Shown here piece by piece: positions 2,353-64,000 of a DNA stretch of 64,000 nt. The notes beneath the pieces are model-generated. The model did not search any database and was not told where the DNA came from. It saw nothing but the letters and a program-made list of their open reading frames with translations. Origin of the DNA: an uncultured Actinomycetota bacterium (GTDB lineage Bacteria; Actinomycetota; Actinomycetes; Mycobacteriales; CADCTP01); assembly GCA_963766325.1 (NCBI GenBank), contig CAVXZF010000010.1, forward strand, positions 160,517 through 224,516, in the 5' to 3' direction. Numbering within the stretch: position 1 is the stretch's first letter; each line of letters opens with the position of its first letter. The translations under genes and the position numbers were made by a program.

Positions 2353-2451
2353 CTTGGGACTCCGGGCGGGGTGTGGCGGGGCGGTCCCCGTGCTGTTGCC
2401 CGCTGGCGGCCGTCCCATGCCCGCGCGCCGGTCCGCGCGTACCGTGGGCGC

Positions 2452-3111: not shown

Positions 3112-3214
3112 GCACCCGCCCGGCCGGCCGGGGCGCAGAACGTCGGTGTCGCGTCGAGGCGATCGCCGTCGGCGGCGTGACTTTCCGGCCGGCGCCTGCC
3201 CGTACGGTGCAGCC

Positions 3215-8395: not shown

Positions 8396-8772
8396 CCCGG
8401 GCGACGGCCCGGGGCGGCGGCCGACCCCTCGGCTGCCGCCGCCACGCCCGGCGCCGCCAGGGACGGTGCCAGCCCGCCAGGCGATCACGGGGTTGCCGCC
8501 TGGCGGGACCGGACCGCCGGACCCGATCCACGGGGGCAGACCAGGCCACGCTTCGTCCGGTCGGCGGGACCGGCCGGCGCAGGGGTCACGGCGCCGGCCG
8601 GCGACAGATCACCGCCCGGAATGCTCGCCTCCGAGCACAGCACGGCACGCGGCGCGGGTCGATGAGCCCACTGCACAATTTGCAACACTCTGCGTGACCA
8701 TCAGGGTCCACACGCGACTTCGAGTCGGCGCTGCTCAAGGGCAGCGTCCTGTCGATCTTGAGCCGGTGGACC
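8396..8772 (+). other. Intergenic array of GC-rich hairpins, candidate structured RNA or REP-like cluster
   Basis: Stems 8413-8440, 8450-8470, 8473-8507 and 8570-8601, plus a branched element at 8705-8772; no credible ORF. Confidence 0.4.
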
Positions 8773-8848
8773 GGGCGACCGAGTCGATCTTCATGACGAT
8801 CCGTAGTCACCGTGCCGGTGGCTCCGCCGGTCGGGCACACTGGACGCC

Positions 8849-17604: not shown

Positions 17605-17680
17605 GCCCGGACCCTAGCGCCGCCCCCCGGGCCGAGCCGGGTGGGTTGGCAAACGGGGACGACCGGGGCACGCTCGCCGG

Positions 17681-18052
17681 GTGGACGAGAGCGTGCCGCC
17701 GGAGCGGGTCCGGGTGGTGCTGGCCGGCGGCCGCCGGGCCCGCCCGGACGCGGCCGCGCGGGAGATCGAGGAGCAGACGCTGGTCGGCGAGGTGCTGGTC
17801 CGCGGCCTGATCCGGACCCAGCTGGCGCTCGCGCTGCGGCTGTCGATCCTGGTCGGGGTGCTCTTCGGGGCGCAGCCGCTGCTGTTCGCGGTGGCGCCCG
17901 GGGTGGCCCGGACCGAGGTCGCCGGCCTGCAGCTGGCCTGGCTGCTGCTCGGCGTGCTGGCCTACCCGCTGGTCTTCGCGGTCGCCTGGACGTACGTGCG
18001 GGCCGCCGAGCGCAACGAGCAGGACTTCGCCGACCTGGTCAACCGGTCGTGA
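17681..18052 (+). CDS. Small membrane protein (DUF485-like partner of solute symporter)
   Basis: Two TM segments, EIEEQTLVGE...YVRAAERNE; GTGA overlap with the symporter gene. Confidence 0.8.
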   Translation: MDESVPPERVRVVLAGGRRARPDAAAREIEEQTLVGEVLVRGLIRTQLALALRLSILVGVLFGAQPLLFAVAPGVARTEVAGLQLAWLLLGVLAYPLVFAVAWTYVRAAERNEQDFADLVNRS

Positions 18053-49728: not shown

Positions 49729-50382
49729 GTGACGGCGCCGGCCCGGGCGGTCGAGTCGTCGCAGGCGCTGGACCGGGGCCTGCGGCTGCTCGCGCTGCTG
49801 GCCGCCGCGGACCGCGGGCTCTCGGTGTCCGAGCTCGCCGACGCGCTCGGCACCAGCCGGGCGGTGGTCTACCGGCTGGTCACCGCGCTGGAGGCGCACG
49901 CGATGGTGCGCCGGCCCGCCGACGGCCGGGTCCGGCTCGGGCTGGGCCTGCTCGACCTGGCCCGCCGGGTGCTGCCGGAGCTGCGGGAGGCCGCCCGCGG
50001 CCCGCTCCGCGAGCTGGCCGAGACGGCCGGTGCGACCGCCCACCTCACGGTTCTGGACGGCGACGACGCGCTCGCCGTCGCGGTGGTCGAGCCGTCCTGG
50101 ACCGACTTCCACGTCGCGTACCGGGTCGGCACCCGGCACCCGGTCCACCGCGGCGCCGCCGGCCGGGCGATCCTGCTCGGCCGGGCGCCCGCCGCCGGCG
50201 GCGACGTCGCCGTCACCGCCGGCGAGCTGCAGGCCGGCGCGCACGGCGTCGCCGCCCCGGTCCGGGACGTCCCCGGCCTGGAGGCCAGCGTCGGCGTGGT
50301 CGCGCTGGCCGATCTCGACGCCGCCCGCGTCGGCCCCGCGGTGGTCGAGGCGGCTGCCGCCGTGGCCCGCCGGCTCCGCTAG
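49729..50382 (+). CDS. IclR family transcriptional regulator
   Basis: SQALDRGLRLL HTH, VGTRHP...GAAGRAIL, GVAAPV. Confidence 0.9.
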   Translation: MTAPARAVESSQALDRGLRLLALLAAADRGLSVSELADALGTSRAVVYRLVTALEAHAMVRRPADGRVRLGLGLLDLARRVLPELREAARGPLRELAETAGATAHLTVLDGDDALAVAVVEPSWTDFHVAYRVGTRHPVHRGAAGRAILLGRAPAAGGDVAVTAGELQAGAHGVAAPVRDVPGLEASVGVVALADLDAARVGPAVVEAAAAVARRLR

Positions 50383-50392
50383 CGTCGCGACC

Positions 50393-51595
50393 GTGACGAC
50401 TTGGCTGCCGGTGCCGGAGGACTCGGGGTTCGGGATCACCAACCTGCCGTACGGGGTGGTCGAGTGGCCCGGTTCCCCGCGGCGCCGGGTCGCGGTCCCC
50501 ATCGGCGACCAGGTGCTCGACCTCGCCGCCGCGCTGGCGCCGGCCGACGGCGACCTCGCCGCCCTGGTCGGCGGGCCGTCGCTGGACGCGCTGCTGGCCG
50601 CCGGGCCGGATGCGTGGGCGGCGGTGCGGGCCGCGCTGCTGCGCCTGCTGACCGACGACCAGCACCGCGCGGCGGTGGAGCCGGCGCTGCTGGCCCGGGA
50701 CCAGGTCAGCCCGGTGCTGCCGTTCACGGTCGCCGACTACGTCGACTTCTACTCCTCCGAGCAGCACGCCACCAACGTCGGGCGGATCTTCCGGCCCGAC
50801 TCCCCGGCGCTGCCGCCCAACTGGAAGCACCTGCCGATCGGCTACCACGGCCGGGCCGGGACGGTCGCCGTCTCCGGCACCGACGTCGTACGGCCCCATG
50901 GTCAGCTCCGGCGCCCGGACGGCCCGGTCTTCGGCCCGTCGGAGCGGCTGGACATCGAGGCCGAGGTCGGCTTCGTGGTCGGGGTGCCGTCCGCGCTGGG
51001 CACCCCGGTGGCGGCCGCCGACTGGCGGCGGCACGTCTTCGGCGTGGTGCTGGTCAACGACTGGAGCGCGCGGGACATCCAGGCCTGGGAGTATCAGCCG
51101 CTCGGGCCGTTCCTGGGCAAGTCGTTCCTCACCTCGGTGTCGCCCTGGGTGGTGCCGCTGGCCGCGCTGGAGGATGCGTTCGTCGAGCCGCCGGCGCAGG
51201 ACCCGGCGCCGCAGGACTACCTGCGCCCGGCCGGGCCCGGGCTGGCGCTGGACATCGAGGTGCGGCTCAACGGGCACGTGGTCTCCCGCCCGCCGGCGGC
51301 CGCGCTCTACTGGACCGCCGCGCAGCAGCTGGCGCACATGACTGTCAACGGCGCCTCGCTGCGTACCGGTGACCTCTACGCCTCGGGCACCGTCTCGGGC
51401 GACGAGCGCGAGCAGCGCGGCTCGCTGATCGAGCTGACCTGGAACGGGACCGAGCCGCTGGAGCTGCCCGGCGGCACGACGCGCGGCTTCCTCGAGGACG
51501 GCGACACGGTGACCATCTCGGCCACCGCGCCCGGACCGGGCGGCAGCCGGATCGCCTTCGGCGACGTCACCGGGACGGTGGCGCCGGCCCGCTGA
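50393..51595 (+). CDS. fahA: Fumarylacetoacetase
   Basis: NLPYG, DYVDFYSS..HATNVG, YHGRAG, LDIEAE, NDWSARDIQAWEYQPLGPFLGK. Confidence 0.96.
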   Translation: MTTWLPVPEDSGFGITNLPYGVVEWPGSPRRRVAVPIGDQVLDLAAALAPADGDLAALVGGPSLDALLAAGPDAWAAVRAALLRLLTDDQHRAAVEPALLARDQVSPVLPFTVADYVDFYSSEQHATNVGRIFRPDSPALPPNWKHLPIGYHGRAGTVAVSGTDVVRPHGQLRRPDGPVFGPSERLDIEAEVGFVVGVPSALGTPVAAADWRRHVFGVVLVNDWSARDIQAWEYQPLGPFLGKSFLTSVSPWVVPLAALEDAFVEPPAQDPAPQDYLRPAGPGLALDIEVRLNGHVVSRPPAAALYWTAAQQLAHMTVNGASLRTGDLYASGTVSGDEREQRGSLIELTWNGTEPLELPGGTTRGFLEDGDTVTISATAPGPGGSRIAFGDVTGTVAPAR

Positions 51596-51596
51596 G

Positions 51597-51947
51597 TCAC
51601 CGGGACGGTGGCTGAGGCCGGTGGCAGGCCATGCAGAGCGCCACGTACGGCAGGATCTCCAGCCGCTCCAGCGGGATGGTCGCCTCGCAGTTGACGCACC
51701 GGCCGTAGCGGCCGGCGCGCATCCGGTCGAGCGCCGCGTCGATGTCGGCGAGCGCGACCTGGGCGGCCCGGCTCAGCGTCGCCATGACCTCGGCGTGGGC
51801 GTCGTCGGCGGGCACCTCGGCGCCGAGCTGGGCGAGCTGGTCGGCCCGGAAGCCGCGCTGCTCGAGCAGCGCGGCCCGCAGCGCGGGCAGGTGGCGGGCT
51901 ACGTCGGGTGGGGTTGGGGCGGGGGCGGGGGCGGGCGGGGCGGGCAT
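51597..51947 (-). CDS. TraR/DksA C4-type zinc finger protein
   Basis: IDAALDRM..GRYGRCVNC...IPLERLEILP....CMAC; AGGAG SD. Confidence 0.9.
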   Translation of the reverse strand: MPAPPAPAPAPTPPDVARHLPALRAALLEQRGFRADQLAQLGAEVPADDAHAEVMATLSRAAQVALADIDAALDRMRAGRYGRCVNCEATIPLERLEILPYVALCMACHRPQPPSR

Positions 51948-52034
51948 CGCGGTCTCCTGGCGGGAGGCGTGCCGGCGTCCGGGCTCAGCCGGCCGGCACG
52001 GGGTTCAGGCGGCGCGGGCGCGGGACGTGGCTGG

Positions 52035-52373
52035 TCAGCGGAGCGGGAGTGGGGGGCCGCGCGCGGCCCGCGGCCGAGGGCCGAACCGGGCCCGACAGGT
52101 CGGGACGGCCAGCACGCCGGCGACCACGCCGGCGGCGAGGACGAGCAGCAGCGCCGGCGGCAGCACCGCGTCGAGCGGCCGGCCGAGGTCGGAGGCCGGG
52201 GCGAGCCGCTTGGCCGCCGGCATCACGACGATCTTGGAGCCGCTGATCGTGTCGGCCGACGTGCCGGTCCAGGCGGCCGCCGCCGGCACGTGGGACAGCG
52301 CCAGCACCGCGAGCACCGCGCCGAGCAGCCATGCGGCGCCTGCTCGGGCGGACCGTGACCGGGCACCGTGCAC
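52035..52373 (-). CDS. Small exported/membrane protein ending in an RGPP motif (candidate arrest peptide)
   Basis: Signal-like N-terminus, second hydrophobic stretch, C-terminal RAARGPPLPLR. Confidence 0.6.
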   Translation of the reverse strand: MHGARSRSARAGAAWLLGAVLAVLALSHVPAAAAWTGTSADTISGSKIVVMPAAKRLAPASDLGRPLDAVLPPALLLVLAAGVVAGVLAVPTCRARFGPRPRAARGPPLPLR

Positions 52374-52416
52374 GTCCTCACAACGCCCGGCGGTCAGCCG
52401 CTGTTCCGCCTGGCGG

Positions 52417-53259
52417 CTACTCGAAGCCGAACATCTGGGTCCACATGTTGCGGCGCGGGTCGTAGCCGACGCCGGTCGCCTTGGACTGGCAGTTGACGAT
52501 GTTGGCCTTGTGGCCGGGGCTGTTCATCCAGCCCTGAACCACCGCGGCGGCGGTCGGGTAGCCGGCTGCGATGTTCTCCCCCGACCAGCGCGGGTAGCCG
52601 GCGGCGGCGGCCCGGTCGCCCGGCCCCTCGCCGTCCGGCGAGGTGTGGCTGAAGTAGTCCCGGTCCACCATGTCCCGGCTGTGCGCCTGGGCGGCCGCGG
52701 TCAGCCGGGAGTCGGTGCGCAGCGCGCCGCAGCCGGCCTTGGCCCGCTCGACGTTGGTCAGCCGGGTCACCTCGGCGGTGATGCCGCCGGACGGCGCCGG
52801 GGCGCTGCTGGTCGGCCGGGGCGTGGTCGGGGCCGGGGTCGGGGGGCGGGACGGGCGGCGCGTCGTCGCGGTGGAGGTCGGCGCCGGCGCGGTCGTCGTC
52901 GGGGTCGGCGTGCCCGCGGCCATCGTGCCGAGCGGCGGCACCGGGGCGGCGCGCCTGTCCCGCGATGCCTGGCCGGCGGCCTTGGTCGCGGTCGGAGCGG
53001 CGGTCAGCTCGGTGCCGGTCCGGTTGCCGGAGGCCAGCTCCGCCGGACGGCCGCCGTCCCGGCCGGTCAGCGCCCAGGCGCCGCCCGCGCCCACCATCAG
53101 CACGGCGGCGAACGCGGCCACCGGGGCGGCGGCGCGGGACCGGCGCCGTCGCTGCTGCTCCCGGGCCTGCCGTGGCTCGCGGGCGGGCCGCTGCTCCCGC
53201 GCCGGCCGTGCCGAGTGTCGGCCGCGTGCGTGCTCGCCGCGCCTGCTGGACCCCGCCAT
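52417..53259 (-). CDS. CAP (SCP) domain protein
   Basis: N.ERAKAGC..L, HSRDM..RDYFSH, GENIA, WMNSPGH, WTQMF; one TM and a Pro/Thr linker. Confidence 0.92.
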   Translation of the reverse strand: MAGSSRRGEHARGRHSARPAREQRPAREPRQAREQQRRRRSRAAAPVAAFAAVLMVGAGGAWALTGRDGGRPAELASGNRTGTELTAAPTATKAAGQASRDRRAAPVPPLGTMAAGTPTPTTTAPAPTSTATTRRPSRPPTPAPTTPRPTSSAPAPSGGITAEVTRLTNVERAKAGCGALRTDSRLTAAAQAHSRDMVDRDYFSHTSPDGEGPGDRAAAAGYPRWSGENIAAGYPTAAAVVQGWMNSPGHKANIVNCQSKATGVGYDPRRNMWTQMFGFE

Positions 53260-53339
53260 CTCCCGCCTTCCCGCGGATGTCCCCCCGGACCGCCGGTCAC
53301 CATACCCGTCAGTGACCATGGATCAAGCCGGGTGACTCC

Positions 53340-53927
53340 TTACGGGTGAACGGCCTCCCACAGAGCGACGAGGGCGAACACGGTGAAGAGCAATCCGGCT
53401 ACCCGCTGTACGAGCCGGAGCGGCACCTTCCGGGTGATGATCCCGCCCAGCAGCACCGCCAGCGTGGCCACGACGACCAGCGCGACGAACGAGCCGGCGA
53501 AGACCGAGACCGGGTCCTCGTACCGGGCGGTGAGCGCGGCGGTGGCGAGCTGGGACGCATCGCCCCACTCGGCGGCGAAGAGCACCCCGAAGGAAGTGGC
53601 CGCGACCGCCACCGGGCCGCGCTGAGCGGCGCTTGCCGCCGTCACCTCGTCCTCCTCTTCCGCGGCGCTCCCGCGCAGCAGGATCACCGCGCCGATCGCG
53701 AAGAGGACCGCGACCACGCCGGCGACCAGCCGTTCCGGCAGCAGGGTCAGCAGCTGCCCGGCGGTCACCGCGATGGCGCACTGCACCGCGAAGGCCGCCG
53801 ACACCCCGGCCAGCACCGGCAGCGGGCGGTACCGCGTCGACAGGACCAGCGTCGCCATCAGTGTCTTGTCCGGCAGCTCGACCGGCAGTACCAGGGCCAG
53901 CGTGGTCAGGGCGACCGCGAAGCTCAC
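53340..53927 (-). CDS. TMEM165/GDT1 (UPF0016) cation transporter
   Basis: ELPDKT and EWGDASQ motifs. Confidence 0.92.
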   Translation of the reverse strand: MSFAVALTTLALVLPVELPDKTLMATLVLSTRYRPLPVLAGVSAAFAVQCAIAVTAGQLLTLLPERLVAGVVAVLFAIGAVILLRGSAAEEEDEVTAASAAQRGPVAVAATSFGVLFAAEWGDASQLATAALTARYEDPVSVFAGSFVALVVVATLAVLLGGIITRKVPLRLVQRVAGLLFTVFALVALWEAVHP

Positions 53928-55096
53928 CGCGCTCCGTTCTCGTAGGCCGCCGCGGTCGCGGCGCGCAGGACCTCCTTGACCGGCAGGCCGAGCGCGTCGG
54001 CGGCGGCGCGGACGTCCTCGTACTCGACGCTCACGTTGACCAGCCGGCCGCGCAGGTGGGCCAGCTTGGTGCGCACCCGCTCACCGTGCACCCGGACCTC
54101 ACCGGCGCTGCGGTCCAGCGCGGTCTTGCCCACGCTGAGCTCCCGCACACCCAGAGTGCTGGTCCGGGCGAAGACCTCGGCGCGTACCAGCTCCACCGCG
54201 CCGGGCGGGCAGAGCACGTGCAGGCTGTGCGCCGGCCGACCCTTCTTCATCAGGATCGGGGTCAGCCAGGCGTCCGAGGCGCCGGCGGCGAACAGCCGCT
54301 CCAGCACGTCCGGCCACAGCCGCGGGTCGAGGTCGTCGACGTTCGTCTCCAGCAGTACGGCGCCGCCCGCGGCCCGGGTGGGCTCTCCCAGCACCAGGCG
54401 CAGCACGTTCGGCAGCTCGGCCAGGTCGCGGCCGCCGGCGCCGTACCCGACCCGGACCGGCGTCAGCGCCGGCAGCGGCCCCCACTCGGTCACCGTCGCG
54501 GCGAGCAGAGCGGCCCCGGTCGGCGTGCACATCTCGTATGGCGGCCCGCCCTGCACCGGCGCCCCGGCCTCCGCGAGCAGCCCGAGGGTTGCCGGCGCCG
54601 GCACCGGGACCCGCCCGTGCGCGCTCTTCGCGGATCCACCGGAGCCCACGGTCACCGGTCCGGCGACCAGCCGCTCCAGCCCCAGCGCGTGCAACCCGGC
54701 CGCCACCCCGACCACGTCGGCGACCGCGTCCAGCGCCCCCACCTCGTGGAAGTGCACCTCGTCCGGGGTGGTCCGGTGCACCGCGGCCTCGGCCCGGGCC
54801 ATCCGGGCGAAGGCGTCCAGCGCGGTCGCCCGTACCGGCCCGGCCAGGTCGGCCGCCTCCACCAGCGCGCGCACGTCCGCCCAGGTCCGGTGCTCCGCTG
54901 ACTCCGGCGCCCGTACGGTCACCGCGGTCGCCCCGATCCCGTGCCGCTCGGTCGCGGACACCGCCAGCTCGATCGGCTCGACGCCGATCGCGTCGACCGC
55001 GGCCTGCAGGGTGGCCACCGGCACGCCGGCGTCCACCAGCGCGCCGAGCAGCATGTCGCCGCTGGCGCCGGCCGCGCAGTCCAGCCAGCCGATCAC
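53924..55096 (-). CDS. larC: Nickel pincer cofactor biosynthesis protein LarC
   Basis: DC.AGASGDMLLGAL, VHFHEVGALD, HG..PVPAPAT, TPTGAA, ETNVDD, MKKGRP, EYED. Confidence 0.93.
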   Translation of the reverse strand: MIGWLDCAAGASGDMLLGALVDAGVPVATLQAAVDAIGVEPIELAVSATERHGIGATAVTVRAPESAEHRTWADVRALVEAADLAGPVRATALDAFARMARAEAAVHRTTPDEVHFHEVGALDAVADVVGVAAGLHALGLERLVAGPVTVGSGGSAKSAHGRVPVPAPATLGLLAEAGAPVQGGPPYEMCTPTGAALLAATVTEWGPLPALTPVRVGYGAGGRDLAELPNVLRLVLGEPTRAAGGAVLLETNVDDLDPRLWPDVLERLFAAGASDAWLTPILMKKGRPAHSLHVLCPPGAVELVRAEVFARTSTLGVRELSVGKTALDRSAGEVRVHGERVRTKLAHLRGRLVNVSVEYEDVRAAADALGLPVKEVLRAATAAAYENGAR

Positions 55097-55794
55097 GTTG
55101 CCGTCCCCGGGGCCGTCCGCGGGGCCGCTCGCCGGGCGACCCGGGCGGCGAAGACGCCGGCCCCGAAACCGTTGTCGATGTTGACCACCACCACGCCGGG
55201 GGCGCAGGAGTTGAGCATCGTCAGCAGCGCCGCCACCCCGCCGAACGAGGCGCCGTAGCCCACGCTCGTCGGCACCGCCACCAGCGGCACCCCGGTCAGG
55301 CCGCCCACCGCGCTCGGCAGCGCGCCGTCCATGCCGGCCACCACCACCAGGCAGTCGGCCGCGTCCAGCACGCCCCGGACGGCCAGCAGCCGGTGGATGC
55401 CGGCCACTCCCACGTCGGTGACCCGCTCCACCCCGGCCCCGAAGACCCGCGCGGTGAACGCCACCTCCGCCGCCACCGGCCCGTCCGACGTCCCCGCCGA
55501 CACCACGCACACGGTCCCGCGCCCGGCCGGCAGCGGCCCCACCGCCACCGCCCGGGCCGCGTCGTCGACCAGCACCTGGTCCCCGTACGCCTCCCGCAGC
55601 GCCACCACCAGCTCGCCCGCCGCCCGCGTCACCAACGCCGGCCGCTCCGGATGAGCCGCCCGCAGCGCGGCCACCACCGCCAGCCCCTGCTCGACGGTCT
55701 TGCCCGCCCCGTACACGACCTCCGGGTCCCCGGTACGCGCCGCCCGGTCCACATCCACCCGGGCGAACCCCAGATCCTCGTAGCCGCCGTGCAC
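55093..55794 (-). CDS. larB: Nickel pincer cofactor biosynthesis protein LarB
   Basis: PEVVYGAGK, AGTSD, DVGVAGIHRL, VAGMDGAL, PTSVGYG, MLNSC, VVNIDNGFGA. Confidence 0.95.
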   Translation of the reverse strand: MHGGYEDLGFARVDVDRAARTGDPEVVYGAGKTVEQGLAVVAALRAAHPERPALVTRAAGELVVALREAYGDQVLVDDAARAVAVGPLPAGRGTVCVVSAGTSDGPVAAEVAFTARVFGAGVERVTDVGVAGIHRLLAVRGVLDAADCLVVVAGMDGALPSAVGGLTGVPLVAVPTSVGYGASFGGVAALLTMLNSCAPGVVVVNIDNGFGAGVFAARVARRAAPRTAPGTAT

Positions 55795-55818
55795 CCGCCG
55801 ACGATAGACGCTGCATAG

Positions 55819-56202
55819 TCAGCGGCCCGGCGCGGCCAGCGACGCCGCGGTCTCCGGCGCCGGCACCGGCGCCTTCGGGGCAGCCGGCTTCGTCGGGGGC
55901 ACCGTCGAGGTGGGCGTCGCCGGCGCCGGCCGGTCCGGCCGCTCCTCGGTCCCGGACGCCATCCCCCAGCCGATCAACCCGATCAGCCCGACGACCAGCA
56001 CCAGCGAGCGGAACAGCACCAGGGCCGGCATCAGCAGCCCCACGATCGCGACCAGAACGGCGCGCAGCGCTTGGAAGAGCAGGATCGCGACTGCGACGAG
56101 CAGCACCAGCACGGTGATGCCGGTATCACCGAGCTGCTGGTCGCGCAGCGGCGCGGCGAAGAGATCGTGTACGGGAGTGGGCGCGGGCGTTACCGTAAAC
56201 AT
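55819..56202 (-). CDS. Small multi-TM hypothetical protein with Pro-rich tail
   Basis: ATG with GAAGGGG SD; long hydrophobic core; divergent from the XRE gene. Confidence 0.7.
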   Translation of the reverse strand: MFTVTPAPTPVHDLFAAPLRDQQLGDTGITVLVLLVAVAILLFQALRAVLVAIVGLLMPALVLFRSLVLVVGLIGLIGWGMASGTEERPDRPAPATPTSTVPPTKPAAPKAPVPAPETAASLAAPGR

Positions 56203-56354
56203 GACGGGCCCCTTCGACGGGCGTCTGTCGCGATGGGCGAGCGCCTCTGGGTCCGCGGCCAAACGTTCTCCGGAGGCGCCGCTCGTGGTCCGTGCGGAGG
56301 CAAACCAGCCGGCTCGGTGCTCACGCCGGCGAGGAGGATCACCGCTCAGCGTTG

Positions 56355-56400
56355 CTGCGGGTTCACATCTCCGTCACCTGCGGGTTCACATCTCCGTCAC
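56355..56400. repeat. Perfect 23-bp tandem duplication CTGCGGGTTCACATCTCCGTCAC x2
   Basis: 56355-56377 equals 56378-56400. Confidence 0.95.
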
Positions 56401-56422
56401 CCCCGACCGAGGCGTCTCGACC

Positions 56423-56445
56423 ACTTCAGGGATTGCAGCTGAAGT
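56423..56445. promoter_or_regulatory. Palindrome ACTTCAG-N9-CTGAAGT, candidate XRE operator
   Basis: Lies in the AT-richer divergent promoter region; further TTCA(G/C) words follow. Confidence 0.5.
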
Positions 56446-56582
56446 TGATCGATTTCAGTGTACGCTGTGCTACATCCATGCGGAACCCCCATTCACTGGA
56501 CCGCACGAAGGTGCAATGAATCTCAGTGCGATCTGCTATCGTTCAGAGGATCTGCAGGTCGTCTGTGTGAGCTGAGGGGCTG

Positions 56583-57635
56583 ATGACACAGCCGCAGTCG
56601 GCGCCCGAGCTGGGTGCACGGCTCCGTGCGCTCCGCATGGAGAGTGGCGCCACGCAAAAGGACGTGGCCGCCGCGCTCGGCCTCGGCGTGTCGTCGATCT
56701 CGATGTACGAGAAGGGCGCGATCCCGCCGGACGCCCGGCTCGCCGACTACGCCGGCTTCTTCGCCGCACGGCTGGGCGACGGCCAGCCGTCCGAAGGCAC
56801 CCCGCGGATCCGGCGGCAGCTGCTCGACGAGCTGCTCGCGCTGCGCCCGCACCGGGAGGCGGAAGTCGAGCCGCGGCCGGTGAAGGACCTGTGGACGTTC
56901 GGTCCCGGCGAGCCGATCATGCTCGTCGTCGGTGAGCTCGAGGACATGAGCCATCCGTACGGCGACGAGGCACACCCCAACTACACCCGGGCGCTGAAGT
57001 TCGCCGATCTCGACGCGCTGCTCGAGCTGCACGGGCACATCCGGATGCGCAATCCGGAGTCCGACGTCCGCTTCATCCGCGGCGACCAGCTCACCGCCTC
57101 CGACAACGTGCTCCGCCATCTCGTCATGGTTGGTGGCCCCGGCCTCAACACCCGCCTTCAGCAGATCCTCGGCCGGACCCCGCTGCCGATTCGGCAGCGG
57201 AAGCATCCGGCGGTCGAGGACGGCGAGGTGTTCGTCATCCCGGGCAAGGAGCCGGCGCTTCCAGAGTTGAGTGATGACGACAAGCCCGTGCTCATGGAGG
57301 ACGTGGGTCTCTTTGCTCGTCTCACCAATCCGCTCAGCACGACCAGGTCGTTGACCTGGTGCAGTGGCATCTTCGCGCGTGGTGTGCTGGGCGCCGTCCG
57401 GCTGCTCACCGACGCCGAACTGCGGGATCAGAACGCCGGCTACCTTACTCGGCGTTTCGCGGACGCTACGCAATTCGCCATACTGGCCAGAGTGCCCGTT
57501 CTCCTCGGGGAGACGATCACTCCTGACCTGCTCAACGAAGATGCGCGGCTGTTCGAGTGGTCCGATGCGGAGCCCCGGCAGCAGCCTGGAGAGGCCCGAC
57601 CGGACGGTGACGCAGGCAAGGCGACGAGCCGATGA
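56583..57635 (+). CDS. XRE-family HTH protein with uncharacterised C-terminal alpha/beta domain
   Basis: LRALR...TQKDVAAALG..VSSISMYEKG HTH; C-terminal VMVGGPGLN...EDVG...NP...G...RGVLGAV. Confidence 0.85.
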   Translation: MTQPQSAPELGARLRALRMESGATQKDVAAALGLGVSSISMYEKGAIPPDARLADYAGFFAARLGDGQPSEGTPRIRRQLLDELLALRPHREAEVEPRPVKDLWTFGPGEPIMLVVGELEDMSHPYGDEAHPNYTRALKFADLDALLELHGHIRMRNPESDVRFIRGDQLTASDNVLRHLVMVGGPGLNTRLQQILGRTPLPIRQRKHPAVEDGEVFVIPGKEPALPELSDDDKPVLMEDVGLFARLTNPLSTTRSLTWCSGIFARGVLGAVRLLTDAELRDQNAGYLTRRFADATQFAILARVPVLLGETITPDLLNEDARLFEWSDAEPRQQPGEARPDGDAGKATSR

Positions 57636-58749
57636 GCAGGCTGCCCGCCACTATCCGTCCCACGCCGACCTGCTGCAGCCGGCCCGCTCCGGCCATCTCC
57701 CCGTCGACGCGATCGTCGTCCCGGCGGCCCGGCCGGCCGCGAACCTCGAGTCCGCTCTCCTGCTCGCAGCCGCCCTCGGCACCCAGGTGGTCGTCCTCTG
57801 CAGCCGCGCCACCCGGATCGAGCAGGTGCTGCGCTTGGCCGACGGGATCGGCGGGGTCCGCTGCACTGCCGTCGACCTCGAGGTCCCGGTCGAGGGCCTG
57901 CCCGAGCTCACCACGTCGACCTTCGCCGAAGCGCCGATCCCGTGGCATGGGGACCTCAGCCTCAAGCGCAACCTCGGTCTCGTGCTGGGTCGCCGGTGCG
58001 GCTGGCGGACGGTCGTGTTTCTCGACGACGACATCCGCGGGGTCTCGCCCGCGCTCGTCGAGCGCGCCGTCGGAACCCTCGGGCACCACGCCGCGGCCGG
58101 GATGCCGGCGACCCGGTTCCCGGACAACTCGGTCGTCGGCCACGCCCGCAGGCTCGCCATCGGCGACCAGGGAGTCTTCGTCAGCGGCTCGGCGCTCGCC
58201 GTCGATGTCAGCCGGGTCGCCTCCTTCTTCCCGGCGATCTACAACGAGGACTGGCTGTTCCTGGCGCCGTACCTGGACCGTCGCGAGGTCGCTGCGGTCG
58301 GTTCCGTCCGGCAGGACGTCCAGGATCCGTTCGAGGACCTGTCCCGTGCCCGCGACGAGGAGTTCGGCGAGGTCATCGGCGAGGGCCTCATCGGCTGGCT
58401 GCACACAGGCTCGTTGCACTCGCCGCTGTCGGAGCGGTACTGGGCCGAGTTCCTCCGGCGGCGGGGAGAGTTCATCGAGACGGTCGCCCTCGGCTGCCGG
58501 CTCTCCGACCACCCGGACGCGGCCCGGGCCGGCGTGGCGCTCGAGATCGCGGAGTCCGCTCGGCGGGGGCTCTCACCCAAGATGCTCGCCGAGTACGTGG
58601 CTGCCTGGTGGGCGGACCTCGACTCCTGGCAGCACTACCTCACCCGGATCGAGCCGGACGACGAGCTCCCCGCCGCACTGGACCTCCTCGGCCTGCCGGC
58701 GGACTCCGTCGGCCCGGCCTGCACCACTCCGCGGACCGGTTCCAGCTGA
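57607..58749 (+). CDS. GT-A fold (family 2-like) glycosyltransferase, uncharacterised
   Basis: IVVPAAR, KRNLGL, VVFLDDD, FFPAIYNEDW; start may be 57541, 57565 or 57607; overlaps the XRE 3' end. Confidence 0.75.
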   Translation: MTQARRRADEQAARHYPSHADLLQPARSGHLPVDAIVVPAARPAANLESALLLAAALGTQVVVLCSRATRIEQVLRLADGIGGVRCTAVDLEVPVEGLPELTTSTFAEAPIPWHGDLSLKRNLGLVLGRRCGWRTVVFLDDDIRGVSPALVERAVGTLGHHAAAGMPATRFPDNSVVGHARRLAIGDQGVFVSGSALAVDVSRVASFFPAIYNEDWLFLAPYLDRREVAAVGSVRQDVQDPFEDLSRARDEEFGEVIGEGLIGWLHTGSLHSPLSERYWAEFLRRRGEFIETVALGCRLSDHPDAARAGVALEIAESARRGLSPKMLAEYVAAWWADLDSWQHYLTRIEPDDELPAALDLLGLPADSVGPACTTPRTGSS

Positions 58750-58794
58750 CCAGCTGAGCCACCTCCTCAGCCACTCCATTCATACGACAGGGCG

Positions 58795-59496
58795 ATGACC
58801 ATGGCTTCTCTAGCTGACGATGTCGTAAATCGAGCCCTGCTGAATGGACCACAACCGGTGATCCGCCGGCATGGTCTGATCCTGCGCCCGTGGACGAACG
58901 AGGACTGTCCGGAGCTCATCGTCGCGTTCAGCGACGGAGCGATCAGCAAGTGGAACCTGCGGACGTTGGACAGTCCCGCCGAGGCGCGCGAATTGATCGC
59001 CGGTTGGAAACGAGGGTGGAAGCGGCACATTTCGGCGAGCTGGGCGGTCGTCGCAGAGTCCGAACCGGATAAGGTGCTCGGACAGGTGGGGTTCCGCTCG
59101 CTCTACCGCCGAGACGGCATGGCGGAGGTGTCCTACTGGGTGTTGCCCCCGTACCGCCGGCAGGGGATCGCAACCCTGGCCGCAGACGCCTTGGCCCAGT
59201 GGGCACTACGCGAGCTCAAGCTCGTGCGACTCGAGCTCGTGCACTCCGTGAAAAACCGGGCGTCGTGCGGAGTGGCCAGGGCGGCCGGTTTCGATTTCGA
59301 GGGGGTCAAGCGCTGCTTGGAACGGCACGAAGACGGCTGGCACGACATGTGCCTGCACGCTCGGATCGCTGCCGACATCCCGACGCCACCCCGCGCGATG
59401 CCGCTGCGGATGCGGGTGGCCGCGCGGCTCGACGGCTCATATCGGGCCGGTGACGCGGCCGGCCGCGCCCGCGAGCTGGTCAGCTCACGCCGCTGA
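58795..59496 (+). CDS. GNAT N-acetyltransferase (RimJ/RimL-like)
   Basis: LILRPW, EVSYWV.P.YRRQGIAT, NRASCGVA..AGF..EG, HDM. Confidence 0.9.
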   Translation: MTMASLADDVVNRALLNGPQPVIRRHGLILRPWTNEDCPELIVAFSDGAISKWNLRTLDSPAEARELIAGWKRGWKRHISASWAVVAESEPDKVLGQVGFRSLYRRDGMAEVSYWVLPPYRRQGIATLAADALAQWALRELKLVRLELVHSVKNRASCGVARAAGFDFEGVKRCLERHEDGWHDMCLHARIAADIPTPPRAMPLRMRVAARLDGSYRAGDAAGRARELVSSRR

Positions 59497-59622
59497 TCCC
59501 GTGGGGAAGTCGGGTCCGGCCACGTCGCCGGCGAACGGGCCACCGCCGTCGGTGGCCAGGAGGGCGGCCAGGACTCCGGTGGTCAGGGCGGTTCGGAGCA
59601 GGGTGCGGCGGTGGGTCTCCAT
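59485..59622 (-). pseudogene. 45-codon ORF that is mostly a Tat signal peptide (truncated gene or small exported peptide)
   Basis: METHRRTLLRTALTTGVLAALLATDGGGPFAGDVAGPDFPTGSAA*, GAGGGGG SD; not in the ORF track. Confidence 0.5.
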
Positions 59623-59710
59623 GGGTCCCCCTCAGTGCGCGGTGTCTTCCCGGAGGTCAGATGCGGCAGCCGGCCGGTCGGTTGTCACCGGCCCGCTAAG
59701 GTCAGCGACC

Positions 59711-60646
59711 GTGCCGGGGGTGCCGCCGACGCGGTTCGCGTACCTGGGTCCCGAGGGGACCTTCGCCGAGGCGGCGCTGCGGACGATCCCGGCGGCGGCG
59801 CGGGGGACGGCCCTGCCGCAGCCGAGCGTGCCGGCGGCGATCGAGGCCGTACGGTCCGGCGAGGCCGACGCCGCGGTGGTGCCGCTGGAGAACTCGGTGG
59901 AGGGCTCGGTCGCGTCCACGATGGACGAGCTGGCCTCCGGGGATCCGCTGGTGATCACCCGGGAGGTGCTGCTGCCGGTCACGTTCTCGCTGCTGGCCCG
60001 GCCGGGGACCACCGCGGAGGCGGTGAAGACCGTCGCCACCCACCCGCACGCCGAGGCGCAGACCCGCCGCTGGCTGCGTGACCACCTGCCGCAGGCCGAG
60101 GTGCTGCTCACCGCGTCCACTGCGGCGGCAGCGGTCGCGGTCGCCCACGGGGAGTACGACGCCGCCGTCGCCGCCCCGATCGCCGGCAGCCGCAACCGGC
60201 TGGTCGCGCTGGCCGAGGACATCGCCGACACCAAGGACGCGGTCACCCGCTTCGTGCTGCTGGCCCGGCCGGGGCCGCCGCCGGAGCCGACCGGGGCGGA
60301 CAGGACCTCGCTGGTCGCCTTCATCCGGCACGACCACACCGGGGCGCTGCTCGAGGTGCTCACCGAGTTCGCGGTGCGGGGGGTCAACCTGACCCGGATC
60401 GAGTCCCGGCCGACCGGGGAGCGGCTGGGGCGCTACTGCTTCTACTTCGACGCCGAGGGGCACGTCGCGGAGGCCCGGGTGGGCGACTCGCTGGCCGCGC
60501 TGCGCCGGATCTGCGCCGACGTGCGCTACCTGGGGTCCTACCCGCGCGGCGGACCGGGGGAGCCACCGCGGCTGCCGCCCGGCCGGGACGACGCATCCTT
60601 CGCCGACGCCGCCGCCTGGCTGGCCCGCCTCCGCCGGGGCGACTGA
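59711..60646 (+). CDS. pheA: Prephenate dehydratase
   Basis: YLGPEGTF, PLENSVEG, TRF, NLTRIESRP, LGSYP. Confidence 0.96.
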   Translation: MPGVPPTRFAYLGPEGTFAEAALRTIPAAARGTALPQPSVPAAIEAVRSGEADAAVVPLENSVEGSVASTMDELASGDPLVITREVLLPVTFSLLARPGTTAEAVKTVATHPHAEAQTRRWLRDHLPQAEVLLTASTAAAAVAVAHGEYDAAVAAPIAGSRNRLVALAEDIADTKDAVTRFVLLARPGPPPEPTGADRTSLVAFIRHDHTGALLEVLTEFAVRGVNLTRIESRPTGERLGRYCFYFDAEGHVAEARVGDSLAALRRICADVRYLGSYPRGGPGEPPRLPPGRDDASFADAAAWLARLRRGD

Positions 60647-60693
60647 CGCATTCCTTCAAGACCGTGCGGCGTCCCGGCGGGAGGCTGGAGGGC

Positions 60694-61140
60694 ATGTCCC
60701 ACTACCCACCGATCACCCCGCACCTGGCGATCACGGACGTGGCCGCGGCGCTCGCCTTCTACGCCAAGGCGTTCGGCGCCGAGGAGCGGCTGCGCCTCGC
60801 CATGCCGGACGGCACGATCGCGCACGCGGAGATGACCCTCAACGGCGGCCTGGTCACGCTCGGCGCCGCCATCCCGGAGTACGGCCTGGCCGCCCCCGAC
60901 CCCGACCAGCCGGTCCAGGTCGCGATCACCGTCTTCGGCCCGGACGTCGACGCCGCGTACGAGCAGGCGGTCGCCGCCGGCGCGACCAGCATGACCGAGC
61001 CGACCGACCAGTTCCACGGCGACCGGACGGCGAGTGTCCGCTGCCCGTACGGGCACAAGTGGATCCTGGCGACCCACTTGCGGGACGTCCCGCCCGAGGA
61101 GCAGCAGCGACTGCTGACGGAGCTGATGTCCGGGGCCTAG
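60694..61140 (+). CDS. VOC/glyoxalase (PhnB-like) protein
   Basis: ITPHL...FY.KAFGAEE...HAEM...DQFHGDR...PYGHKW. Confidence 0.92.
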   Translation: MSHYPPITPHLAITDVAAALAFYAKAFGAEERLRLAMPDGTIAHAEMTLNGGLVTLGAAIPEYGLAAPDPDQPVQVAITVFGPDVDAAYEQAVAAGATSMTEPTDQFHGDRTASVRCPYGHKWILATHLRDVPPEEQQRLLTELMSGA

Positions 61141-61149
61141 AGTCCGGGC

Positions 61150-61947
61150 GTGACCGAGGTCCCACCCGTCGTGCTGCGGTACGACGGGTGGGACCTCCGG
61201 CCGTTCCGGCTGCACTTCGCGGACCCGCCGGACTCCCTCGCCGCCGTGGTGGAGAACCTCTGGTCGGTCGAGTGGTCGCTGCCGGACGGCGCGGAGCACC
61301 ACCAGGAGGTGGTCACCCATCCCTGTGCGCACATCACGGTCGAGGCCGGCCGGTCGTGGGTGCAGGGCGTGCTCACCCGCCGCTTCCGGCGCCGCCTGGT
61401 CGGCCGCGGCCGGGTGGTCGGCGCGAAGCTGCGCCCGGCCGCGCTGAGCGCGTTCACGGACGTGCGGCCGGCCACGCTCGTCGACCGTCGGGTGCCGGCC
61501 GGTGAGGTGCTCGGTGACGTCTCGGGCCTGGTCGGGGCGGTGGCGGCGGCGCCGGACGCCGAACGGGGGATGGCCGCCATCGCCGGCTGGCTGGGCGCGC
61601 GCGACCCGCGGCCGCCGGACGGGGCCGGACTGGTGGACGAGGCGGTCGAGCTGGCGACCCGGGACCGCGAGCTGACCCGGGTCGTCGACCTGGCCGCGGC
61701 GCTGGACGTCCCGGTGCGCACCCTGCAGCGACGCTTCGACCGGCATCTCGGGGTCGGCCCCAAGTGGGTGCTCAACCGGTGCCGGATCCAGGACGCGCTG
61801 GCCGCGATCGAGGCCGGCGACACGGTGGACTGGGCCGACCTCGCGGTCCGGCTCGGGTACGCCGACCAGTCCCACTTCGTGAACAGCTTCACCGCGCTGG
61901 TCGGGGTGCCGCCGGACCGCTACCGGCGGCGCAGCACTGGTGGGTGA
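61150..61947 (+). CDS. AraC family transcriptional regulator
   Basis: RTLQRRF...GVGPKW, WADLA..LGYADQSHF...F...G.PP. Confidence 0.9.
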   Translation: MTEVPPVVLRYDGWDLRPFRLHFADPPDSLAAVVENLWSVEWSLPDGAEHHQEVVTHPCAHITVEAGRSWVQGVLTRRFRRRLVGRGRVVGAKLRPAALSAFTDVRPATLVDRRVPAGEVLGDVSGLVGAVAAAPDAERGMAAIAGWLGARDPRPPDGAGLVDEAVELATRDRELTRVVDLAAALDVPVRTLQRRFDRHLGVGPKWVLNRCRIQDALAAIEAGDTVDWADLAVRLGYADQSHFVNSFTALVGVPPDRYRRRSTGG

Positions 61948-61980
61948 CCGGCGGCCGCCCGCCGGGTGCCGGGTGCGCGG

Positions 61981-63315
61981 TCAGGGCGCACCGGGGTCCG
62001 ACCGCGAGCCTCGCCGCGCCGCCCGCCCTTCCAGGTAGCGGCGCTCCGGCGCGCTGAGCGTCGCCCGGGCGGCGGCGTCGAACTCGGCCCGCGCCGCGGC
62101 CGCGTCCCCGGCCCGCTCCAGCAGGTGCGCCCGGACGGCGTGCCGCCGGTGGTGGTCGGCCAGCGCCGGCTCGGCCGCCACCGCCTCGTCCAGCGCGGCC
62201 AGGCCGGCCGCCGGCCCGTGCACCTCGGCCAGCGCCACCACCCGGTTGAGGGTGACCATCGGCCCCGGGGCGAGGGCGCGCAGGTGGTCGTACAGGACGA
62301 GGATCTGCGGCCAGTCGGTGTCCTCGACCCGCCGCGCCTCGCTGTGCACAGCGGCGATGGCGGCCTGCAGCTGGTACGGCCCGATCGGGGTCGAGGCCAG
62401 CGCCCACTGCACCAGCGCGGTGCCCTCGGCGATCAGGCCGGCGTCCCACCGGCTCCGGTCCTGCTCGCCCAGCGGCACGAGGGACCCGTCCGGCCCGGTG
62501 CGGGCCGGTCGCCGGGCGTCGGTGAGCAGCATGAGCGCGAGCAGGCCGGCGACCTCGCCGTCGGACGGCAGCCGCTCGCGCAGCTGCCGGGTCAGCCGGA
62601 TCGCCTCCGCGGACAGGTCCACGCGGTGCAGCGCCGCCCCTGAGCTGGCCGTGGAGCCCTCCGTGAAGAGGAGGTAGAGCACGTGCCGGACCGCGGCCAG
62701 CCGGTCCGGCAGCTCGGCCGCGGGCGGCATCCGGAACCGGCCGCCGGCCGCCTTGATCCGCTGCTTGGCCCGGCTGATCCGCTGGGCGACGGTCGCCTCC
62801 GGGACCAGCAGCGCCCGCCCGACCTCCGCGGTGGTGCGCCCGCCGACCGCGCGCAGGGTCAGCGCGACCTGGGAGACCGGGGTGAGCGCCGGGTGGCAGC
62901 AGAGCAGCAGCAGGGTGAGCGTGTCGTCCTCTGATGACGGAGCGGGGGGTGCTCCGGCCGGCTCGGCGGGGGTGCGCGCGACCACGGTCTGCTCCCGCAG
63001 TGCGCGGGCCGAGTCCCGGCGCCACGCCTCGATGCGGCGCCGGGACGCGGTGGTGATCAGCCAGCCCTTGGGGTTGGCCGGCACACCCTCGGCCGGCCAC
63101 TGCTGCGAGGCGGCGAGCAGCGCCTCCTGCACCGCGTCCTCGCAGCTGTCGAAGTCGCCGTACCGGCGGACCAGCGCGGTGAGGACCTGCGGCGCCAGCC
63201 CGCGCAGCAGGTCCTCCAGCTGTGCCCGCTCCTCGGACAGGCCGCCAGGCGCAAGCGCCGGCCGGCCGGCCCTCGTCGCTCCCCGCTCGCGCTGCGAGCC
63301 CTCGCGCTCGCTCAT
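61981..63315 (-). CDS. ECF42-type sigma factor (DUF6596/TPR extension) with N-terminal repeat insertion
   Basis: EDAVQEA, LLCCHPAL, LFTEG, GPYQLQAAIAAVH, TDWPQI; downstream of YciI. Confidence 0.92.
   Translation of the reverse strand: MSEREGSQRERGATRAGRPALAPGGLSEERAQLEDLLRGLAPQVLTALVRRYGDFDSCEDAVQEALLAASQQWPAEGVPANPKGWLITTASRRRIEAWRRDSARALREQTVVARTPAEPAGAPPAPSSEDDTLTLLLLCCHPALTPVSQVALTLRAVGGRTTAEVGRALLVPEATVAQRISRAKQRIKAAGGRFRMPPAAELPDRLAAVRHVLYLLFTEGSTASSGAALHRVDLSAEAIRLTRQLRERLPSDGEVAGLLALMLLTDARRPARTGPDGSLVPLGEQDRSRWDAGLIAEGTALVQWALASTPIGPYQLQAAIAAVHSEARRVEDTDWPQILVLYDHLRALAPGPMVTLNRVVALAEVHGPAAGLAALDEAVAAEPALADHHRRHAVRAHLLERAGDAAAARAEFDAAARATLSAPERRYLEGRAARRGSRSDPGAP
63223..63315 (-). 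repeat. 93-bp MIRU-like interspersed element, copy 2
   Basis: 83/93 nt identical to 16190-16282, in the same ATGA junction context. Confidence 0.85.
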
Positions 63316-63680
63316 CCGAACGAGGCGAGGTCGAGGACGGGCCGCATCTCGACCAGGCCCATGTCGGCCTCGGGGATCCGGCCGGCGATCTCGGCGGCCC
63401 GGTCCGGCCCGGCGACGTCGACCAGGTAGAAGCCGGCCAGGTGCTCCTTGACCTCCGCGTACGGCCCGTCGCTGGCGATCGAGCCGTCCGGCCGCCGGAC
63501 CACCTGCCGGCCGTCCTCCGGGTAGCTCAGCGCCTCGGTCGCGACCAGCTCGCCGGACGCGGTGAGCTCCGCGTTGAGCCGGTGGTAGACCTCCAGCCCG
63601 ACCGACCGGTCGGTGTCGGACATGGTCTCCCACATCTGCCGGGACTCGGCGTTGCGGTAGATCAGGATCACGTACTTCAC
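63312..63680 (-). CDS. YciI/DGPF family protein
   Basis: KYVILIY...SDGPYAEVKEHLAGFY...EMRP; GAGGAGG SD. Confidence 0.92.
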   Translation of the reverse strand: MKYVILIYRNAESRQMWETMSDTDRSVGLEVYHRLNAELTASGELVATEALSYPEDGRQVVRRPDGSIASDGPYAEVKEHLAGFYLVDVAGPDRAAEIAGRIPEADMGLVEMRPVLDLASFG

Positions 63681-63712
63681 GGTGCCTCCTCGGGCCGGGT
63701 TCTCACCCGGGA

Positions 63713-63740
63713 TGTCGAGACAGAGTGCCCGGCCTCGACG
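63713..63740. promoter_or_regulatory. Overlapping divergent ECF42-type promoters
   Basis: Plus strand: TGTCGA(63713)-N17-CGAC(63736). Minus strand: CGTCGA(63740-63735)-N17-CGAC(63717-63714). Confidence 0.7.
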
Positions 63741-63787
63741 TCCCGGGCGAGCGGCGGCCACCCGGGTCGCCGGAGGAGGGCAGTGCG

Positions 63788-64000
63788 ATGACGACGGAGA
63801 TCCGCGACGTGATCGGCGAGCTGGAGACGGCCATGCGGGCCGGCGACGCGAAGGCGGTCGTGGCGCTCTACGGCCCGGACGCGGTGCAGTACAACCTCGC
63901 CCCGCCGCTGCGGCACACCGCCGAGGAGGTGCACGACGCGGCCGCGCTGCAGGTCTGGTTCGACGGCTTCGGCGGGTCGGTGGGCTTCGAGGTGCACGAC
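63788..64000 (+). CDS. SnoaL/NTF2-like protein, 3' end beyond window
   Basis: GGAGGAGG SD; MTTEIRDVI...AMRAGDAKAVVALYGPDAVQYNLAPPL...WFDGF. Confidence 0.8.
   Translation, partial: MTTEIRDVIGELETAMRAGDAKAVVALYGPDAVQYNLAPPLRHTAEEVHDAAALQVWFDGFGGSVGFEVHD

Follow-up and report, generated by a model that had tools for sequence, protein, structure and literature searches.

What do the four genes that lie between larB and pheA on an actinomycete chromosome have to do with one another, and on what might they act? The question arises from a window of 64,000 nucleotides (nt), the whole stretch of DNA that was analysed, taken from a high-GC actinomycete chromosome (contig C10 of genome G000, 5.5 Mb). 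In it, an XRE-family regulator gene (XRE) overlaps the gene of a GT-A fold, glycosyltransferase-like enzyme (GT), which is followed by a GNAT gene, while a small membrane protein gene diverges from the regulator; together with a 380-nt control region, these four genes make up a compact system. A first-pass annotation, made from the sequence alone, had proposed a self-contained signalling or conflict module. It is now well supported that XRE and GT form a near-obligate pair and that a self-contained module is real; the function favoured for it, modification of a small molecule by glycosylation and acylation, is put forward tentatively.

The XRE–GT pair and its control region

Adjacency of the two genes was counted in both directions. 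In one-genome-per-species contigs, 453 of 598 candidate stretches encode a GT relative, and in the 80 best loci, from which the counts were taken, XRE lies directly upstream on the same strand for 79 of 85 GT matches. The six exceptions comprise one match without upstream DNA, the frameshifted pairs of locus L063, L093 with one gene inserted, and L047 (two copies) and L077, both without an intact XRE. A further 80 metagenome loci were collected by a search with the XRE alignment, at 37-45% identity; a search with the single XRE protein gave no relative. Here GT is directly downstream in 71 of 81 XRE matches, five of the others having no room for it and five having no GT. The gap between XRE stop and GT start is at most 100 nt in 127 of 130 pairs, with 4-nt overlaps in 18. 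Within the genus, GT is present in 10 of 12 other genomes, and XRE and GT stand side by side in 11 of 12 loci retrieved, one locus carrying two pairs. The recurrence that had been expected of the module is borne out by these counts, with GNAT and membrane protein genes enriched at fixed places around the pair; across actinomycetes the pair is kept and its neighbours vary (GNAT, hexapeptide and alpha/beta hydrolase proteins, small membrane proteins), and literature searches brought up no characterised system of such composition.

That the genes are no functional unit, but chance neighbours in a variable region, is scarcely credible. The block does lie in variable, lower-GC DNA, and GNATs are common genes in actinomycetes; however, adjacency seen from either gene, in two locus sets of 80 collected independently, contradicts this explanation for the XRE–GT pair, and positional enrichment relative to distant places of the same loci, as well as domain fusions, speak against it too. 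From the gene layout, co-transcription of XRE with the cytoplasmic GT is predicted firmly enough to count as shown, or close to it, and the two are probably translationally coupled. Two large protein families without a Pfam model or named function (1607 GT representatives and the XRE-fused domain) can now be treated as one near-obligately coupled unit, offering a recognisable operator-like motif, fixed accessory places and informative domain fusions. As a separate observation, L013 (G006:C152:33000-49000) holds two tandem XRE–GT pairs away from larB and pheA, one of which is followed by a window-type GNAT, and in L045, L055 and L101 there is a second pair or an additional XRE paralogue.

The regulator carries HTH_31, a helix-turn-helix (HTH) domain, at residues 9-52 (Pfam, E 4.6e-11; HTH_3, E 2.9e-8), and HTH_31 matches 52 of the 56 XRE family members; the remainder, of about 280 residues, has no Pfam family. 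The structural model, with a predicted local distance difference test (pLDDT) score of 89.9, contains the HTH, a helical linker and a mixed alpha/beta domain of 10 strands at approximately residues 98-330. Outside the HTH, the alignment of 56 homologues has 20 invariant columns, many of them polar, including D142, D144, E148, N157, H179, G184, G185, D240, D277, R281, N284 and D315. The fusion of an HTH to an alpha/beta domain, first read from the letters of the sequence, is upheld by the domain match, the model and the motif columns, where G184 and G185 are invariant and N189 is near-invariant. Foldseek, suggested earlier for both unknown domains, placed one of them, GT, in the GT-A fold (168 PDB chains), but for the XRE model it gave only HTH matches in the PDB, none at E <= 0.001. 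Weak S-layer C family signals for the C-terminal domain (three of 56 members at E 0.042 or weaker; Atlas feature score 0.85) are leads only. NCBIfam matches concern the HTH part only and are sub-threshold HipB/MqsA-type antitoxins (e.g., 27.5 bits against a cut-off of 71.65), and PADLOC gives weak HTH-region matches only (best E 0.00085). Prediction of a complex between the C-terminal domain (98-335) and GT (15-372) scored 0.00 in two runs and weighs neither way.

RRNPP receptors such as Rgg, ComR and PlcR also join an XRE HTH to a larger C-terminal sensor domain and have a small gene diverging from them. The regulator resembles them in its N-terminal XRE HTH, its larger C-terminal domain and its small divergent gene, and ComR is among the HTH-only fold matches. 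It differs from them in that the C-terminal domain is alpha/beta rather than TPR-like (no TPR Pfam domain occurs in the XRE protein or its 56 family members), and in that the product of the divergent gene is a membrane protein, 80-130 amino acids (aa) long, rather than a short secreted peptide.

The small membrane gene had been said to diverge from an operator-rich spacer, and this description holds: the open reading frame is present, and the spacer contains both a family-wide palindrome and a 23-nt duplication. The former is the imperfect 20-bp palindrome CTGAAGTTGATCGATTTCAG, which lies 125 nt upstream of the XRE ATG. To place it in context, 158 XRE upstream regions from both locus sets and the window were surveyed against shuffled controls. 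Exact CTGAA-N(1 or 10-13)-TTCAG occurs in 46 of the 158 regions as compared to 0-1 in each of 20 shuffles, and the palindrome with a 1-nt spacer and at most one mismatch in 54, as compared to 0-5 per shuffle. CTGAA/TTCAG half-sites average 2.48 per region (0.52 in shuffles), and at least two are present in 87 of the regions, against 8.9% of shuffles. The sites concentrate approximately 26-43 nt and 190-250 nt upstream of the estimated XRE start. The window's own genome has five such palindromes, the other four without evident link to the module, and no wider regulon was seen; together with the single copy of XRE in this genome, this fits a dedicated local autoregulator. XRE is graded as shown, or close to shown, to be a predicted DNA-binding autoregulator of this kind, with the CTGAA/TTCAG motifs as putative operators in a promoter region common with the divergent membrane gene.

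The 23-nt duplication has no copies in the 5.5-Mb genome beyond the two in the spacer at up to two mismatches, and is distinct from the family-wide CTGAA/TTCAG motif; it may represent an additional operator or have arisen by recent slippage. A simple scan of the spacer found no sigma-70 consensus promoter, and three weak terminator-like sites are within chance. Elsewhere in the same genome, at about 12000-16000 of contig C5, one of the rare CTGAACTTCAG palindromes lies inside an open reading frame; the same stretch contains four genes of low GC content at third codon positions (GC3, 0.76-0.79), one of which has an epimerase-like start (NAD-dependent sugar) by eye.

The GT-A fold enzyme

GT likely starts at the GTG at 57607, with GGAGAGG 11 nt upstream; this start produces the 29-nt overlap with XRE and agrees with the 380-aa database protein P0001. 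The open reading frame has no match in Pfam, NCBIfam, PADLOC or PHROGs. Its model (pLDDT 92, predicted template modelling (TM) score 0.91) shows a GT-A fold with a helical domain at its C-terminal end, and all of the PDB chains listed among the 168 that Foldseek returned at E <= 0.001 are GT-A glycosyltransferases. In 54 homologues, K120-R121-N122, D140-D141-D142 and Y212-N213-E214-D215-W216 are invariant, as is E252-F253-G254, and R182 and H266 are near-invariant. The overlapping DxD glycosyltransferase of the first-pass annotation is recovered in overlap, fold and motifs alike, and it is well supported by the model that GT is an intact GT-A transferase-like protein, predicted to keep the metal- and nucleoside diphosphate (NDP)-binding DDD motif.

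The family is large and almost without names. It numbers 1228 proteins at E <= 0.001 among 8000 scored candidates, and 1607 representatives of 50%-identity clusters at the same threshold, with 803 at E <= 1e-30; nearly all of 120 listed relatives are unnamed or called 'hypothetical protein', and one bears a generic glycosyltransferase name. The enzyme does not group with the ordinary cell-wall GT2 enzymes, a placement that would have told against the earlier proposal: no GT2 family profile matches any of the 54 members at E <= 5, Pfam has no match, and in the Atlas GT2-bearing clusters appear only at a feature score of about 0.93, as compared to 0.99 for the family's own unnamed clusters. A PDB sequence search with the GT profile gave chance-level matches only, such as geminin (E 0.14 or weaker). 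A fold search of BFVD gave generic viral GT-A matches, among them phage TAGT models at target-normalised TM-scores of 0.46-0.49; the TAGT family (PF20691) has weak Pfam matches in four of the 54 members (best E 0.034, far below significance). GT differs from TAGT in context, with no TET/JBP gene nearby and no GT relative in phage genomes. The GT-A enzymes MPGS (GT55), GpgS (GT81), MGS (GT78) and AvpGT act on small acids or a nucleoside and have no sequence similarity to GT; to our knowledge, none of them has an XRE partner.

The nearest solved fold is GT75, which includes MtdL, Hyg20 and the plant UAM or reversibly glycosylated polypeptides (RGP). The DDD that positions Mn2+ and NDP in GT75 is also found in GT (D140-D142, invariant), as is the three-part architecture of GT-A N-terminal region, core and C-terminal helices. 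In sequence, however, the RGP profile (PF03214) gives no GT Pfam match at E <= 0.01 and none for any member of the 54-sequence alignment at E <= 5, and an hhalign comparison of the GT family with a 24-sequence GT75 alignment is not significant (probability 0.59, E 0.098), though it nonetheless lines up IVVPxxR, (K/I)R(N/S)xG and DDD. The RGP model has no match over the window's own genome at 1e-5, and matches three genomes, one of them unpublished, in a phylum sample of 401. As GT75 membership is unsupported by sequence, GT is called a new GT-A family with GT75 as its nearest solved fold, and is a candidate for a new glycosyltransferase family next to GT75.

It may be asked whether GT is instead a true NDP-sugar pyranose-furanose mutase of the MtdL/UAM kind, supplying a furanose donor, with the other genes incidental. 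This seems very improbable given the absence of an RGP Pfam match and the hhalign result. By motif resemblance only, the RFGD of MtdL (Arg257, Asp260) corresponds to EFG(D/E) in GT, so that the place of Arg257 would be taken by the invariant glutamate E252; R182 and H266 are near-invariant, whether or not they correspond to any of the MtdL set, namely the conserved arginine nucleophile Arg159 together with Arg257, Asp260 and His287. Surroundings differ as well: GT75 genes lie among sugar or antibiotic biosynthesis genes and GT beside a regulator and a GNAT, and no furanosyltransferase or sugar-pathway genes occur in the loci, as a Pfam scan confirmed for the latter, whose absence had already been remarked on in the window.

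Accessory genes and the possible function of the cassette

The neighbours of the pair were surveyed with a crude GC3-based gene caller in the 65 loci where it called the pair; places far from the pair in those loci served as control. GNAT-like genes take the first downstream place in 21 of 65 loci, the first upstream place in 7 of 64 and the second upstream place in 6 of 61, as compared to 3 of 299 distant places, and one lies within two genes of the pair in 32 of the 65. Small proteins (at most 200 aa, with at least two membrane segments) are never first downstream (0 of 65) and are concentrated first upstream (26 of 64; second upstream 8 of 61, distant 19 of 299), where the gene is divergent in 52 of 65 loci. 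Pfam assigned 28 of the 129 immediate neighbours to Acetyltransf_1, nine to Acetyltransf_3, five each to alpha/beta hydrolase and MFS, and three each to hexapeptide and GCS2.

The best 150 GT representatives, 20 of whose 23 proteins longer than 500 aa were included in a long-form Pfam scan, contain two GT-GT tandems, two GT-GNAT, two GT-hexapeptide and four GT-alpha/beta-hydrolase fusions, as well as one flavin reductase-GT and one TIR_2-GT fusion (P0293, E 1.6e-18). In 14 GT homologues of 491-604 aa that were examined, most of the C-terminal extensions consist of low-complexity read-through that lacks any Pfam domain.

Both the fusions and the enrichment by position connect GT with acyl transfer, or with hydrolysis, on one shared substrate, and the reading favoured is therefore that of a locally autoregulated glycosylation-plus-acylation cassette, which may act on a small molecule sensed by the C-terminal domain of XRE; it is held with somewhat less than even confidence. 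With an NDP-sugar as donor, GT would glycosylate a small molecule that probably bears an amine. An adjoining or fused acyl-handling enzyme, mostly a GNAT and sometimes a hexapeptide acyltransferase or alpha/beta hydrolase, would act on the same acceptor or product, and the C-terminal alpha/beta domain would bind substrate or product and thereby set both divergent transcripts, with the small membrane protein as a co-regulated accessory. The earlier suppositions that the transferase makes or masks a ligand of the XRE domain, and that the membrane protein is the effector, stay hypothetical. The acceptor might come from outside, as an antibiotic would, or be a metabolite of the cell itself; if it is antibiotic-like, the cassette would represent a new inactivation route in soil actinomycetes.

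Several observations weigh against this. In half of the loci no GNAT lies within two genes of the pair, and the GNAT partners are of several subfamilies and orientations and match generic models only; many are convergent or divergent and so are not co-transcribed with GT. Fold matches to the C-terminal domain are weak, so that ligand binding is inferred from its invariant polar residues alone. Divergence is also much quicker in the pair than in its flanks (39-49% identity as compared to 76-92%). In six same-genus genomes with the pair at the larB–pheA site, XRE is 39-42% and GT 43-49% identical to that of the window, as compared to 81-90% for LarB and 76-92% for PheA; this is a case of very fast allele turnover within conserved synteny. 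Same-site alleles fall in at least three clades of a FastTree tree of 90 GT rows, tandem duplication of the pair occurs, and there is the one TIR fusion. Distribution is patchy: in an even phylum sample of 401 genomes that includes G000, with four candidates scored per genome, the only match at E <= 1e-10 is in G000 itself.

These last features invite a different explanation, a toxin-antitoxin-like or conflict module, in which GT would be a growth-arresting or invader-directed effector glycosylating an essential or foreign target. The two-domain XRE would then repress the operon and neutralise or gate GT through its C-terminal domain, and GNAT, alpha/beta hydrolase, TIR and small membrane proteins would serve as effectors in place of GT or alongside it. 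This explanation is considered unlikely, yet much of the layout suits it. An HTH gene stands upstream of and overlaps an enzyme gene, with putative palindromic operators, the pair is hypervariable within conserved synteny with same-site alleles in at least three clades, tandem and paralogous pairs exist, distribution is patchy, a TIR_2-GT fusion is known, and accessory genes vary around a constant core. The arrangement is also that of the type IV system AbiE as described in two papers (PMC3985639, PMC7319586), where the upstream two-domain HTH antitoxin AbiEi autoregulates via inverted repeats and the nucleotidyltransferase AbiEii follows in the same operon. Here, unlike in AbiE, the HTH is XRE rather than winged, the enzyme is GT-A rather than DUF1814, and PADLOC gives no match.

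Other evidence runs counter to a conflict role. The PADLOC check suggested by the first-pass annotation did not support one: PADLOC has no match for GT, GNAT or the membrane protein, and PHROGs gives no defence match for them; nor do Pfam, NCBIfam, PADLOC and PHROGs assign GT to any known family of toxins or antitoxins. Among the 129 neighbours, eight PADLOC families are seen, each in one or two members, and with only such sporadic matches the cassette does not lie in defence islands. No GT relative occurs in 50,697 phage or 72,556 plasmid records, which, with the lack of PADLOC matches for the three non-regulator proteins, appears not typical of mobile defence. Loci with GT alone exist (L047, L077, L024), which one would not expect of a toxin; the most frequent partners are acyltransferases of a kind usual in small-molecule metabolism; and the TIR fusion is just one of 150 listed representatives. 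Literature searches brought up no glycosyltransferase toxin-antitoxin pair, and none is known to us; should GT prove toxic, this would be the first. A narrower version, a glycosylation-based conflict or addiction module, is less probable still. In it, a GT75-like enzyme would glycosylate either itself or an essential target in the host or an invader, the C-terminal domain of XRE with its invariant pocket would sense or reverse this, and the swappable partners (small membrane proteins, GNAT, alpha/beta hydrolase, TIR) would be the effectors. An arms race would then account for the fast turnover of alleles at one chromosomal site.

Returning to the cassette, its distribution also bears on its history. 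The window's GT clade has 13 rows (support 100) and includes two Paractinoplanes and one Jatrophihabitantaceae sequence; this mixed clade suggests some transfer, while labels over the whole GT tree still cluster by order. At L016 (G001:C10:418000-432000), an XRE-GT-GNAT cassette occupies the larB–pheA site in the opposite orientation to that of the window, suggesting inversion or independent insertion at the site.

The two accessory proteins of the window can be described further. Its GNAT had been typed as RimJ/L, and the assignment stands in part: the Acetyltransf_3 domain is clear (E 8.3e-26), but the score against the RimL equivalog NF007539 (35.1 bits) is under the cut-off of 184, and a GNAT of this type follows GT in the nearest clade only, in L013, L015 and L016 as well as in five of the 80 genome loci. 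The membrane protein has a single hydrophobic stretch (residues 22-85), ends in a tail rich in Pro, Thr and Ala, and has no Pfam or NCBIfam match; two same-genus genomes (L017, L018) have relatives of it in the corresponding place, and the small membrane proteins as a whole fall into many unrelated sequence clusters. A conserved protein family of about 210 aa (L078:4939-5574 and six similar loci, mostly Pseudonocardiaceae) replaces the membrane protein as the divergent neighbour of XRE; in these seven loci it has no Pfam match, and its N-terminus is cyclase-like by eye only.

Both proteins figure in one further alternative, a protein-directed modification switch. GT would glycosylate itself (as GT75 proteins do, on arginine), XRE or the membrane-protein tail, the RimJ/L-like GNAT would acetylate a protein amine, and expression would follow the modification state. 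The RimJ/RimL type of the window GNAT and the Pro/Thr-rich tail of its membrane protein speak for this explanation. It is nevertheless rather improbable, as the GT75 profile comparison is not significant, the RGP model has no match in the window's own genome, and most GNAT partners are not of RimJ/L type. Glycosylation of the tail in particular is weakened, since a tail of at least 20 aa rich in Pro, Thr and Ser is present in only 8 of 33 small membrane proteins.

The larB–pheA block and its surroundings

The four genes had been described as a 3.7-kb block richer in A/T-ending codons than its flanks, and three measures bear this block out: the drop in GC, a GC3 below the median, and the points at which similarity to related genomes breaks off and restarts. 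GC in 500-nt windows is 0.64-0.73 between larB and pheA (approximately 55.75-59.5 kb) as compared to 0.74-0.80 in the flanks. GC3 is 0.84 for XRE, 0.92 for GT, 0.80 for GNAT and 0.91 for the membrane gene, against a median of 0.95 over 51 called window genes, so that the lowering is clear for XRE and GNAT and slight for GT and the membrane gene. Nucleotide similarity to same-genus genomes ends at 55807, 56114 or 56291 and restarts at 59696-59728. No att-like anchor was found, because 50000-64000 contains no tRNA genes, and an Rfam scan of 55500-60000 gave no family at E <= 1. Coordinates are collected in Table 1.

Table 1. Genes and control elements of the larB–pheA interval, in window coordinates
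Feature	Position	Strand	Description
larB	55093-55794	minus	Pfam AIRC
Small membrane protein gene	55819-56202	minus	Open reading frame, 127 aa from ATG; divergent from XRE
Control spacer	56203-56582		380 nt, between the divergent membrane gene and XRE
Tandem duplication	56355-56400	plus	Perfect, 23-nt unit CTGCGGGTTCACATCTCCGTCAC x2; repeat search
Operator-like element	56423-56458		Half-site ACTTCAG at 56423-56429, then palindrome at 56439-56458
XRE-family regulator gene	56583-57635	plus	350 aa; HTH at residues 9-52, helical linker, alpha/beta domain
GT gene	57607-58749	plus	380 aa; GT-A fold DDD enzyme; 29-nt overlap with XRE
GNAT gene	58795-59496	plus	233 aa; Acetyltransf_3; 46 nt downstream of GT
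pheA	~59738-60646		Pfam PDT and ACT

Beside larB, LarC is identified by Pfam Ni_insertion. The longest larC open reading frame (53924-55816, minus, 630 aa) is covered by this domain over residues 244-616 only, and its 5' part overlaps larB in another frame; the true start is probably near 55100, abutting larB, over-long open reading frames being ordinary for high-GC DNA. Further away, genes at 1309-3342, 8586-8840 and 16669-19758 have GC3 values of 0.73-0.85, well under the median, and may be further accessory or acquired genes. A 300-aa open reading frame at 52417-53319 (minus) has a long Pro/Thr/Ala-rich middle and a C-terminal part that is CAP/SCP-like by eye only. Assembly of reads from four soil DNA runs yielded short contigs only, some of which are identical to the block across 151 nt.

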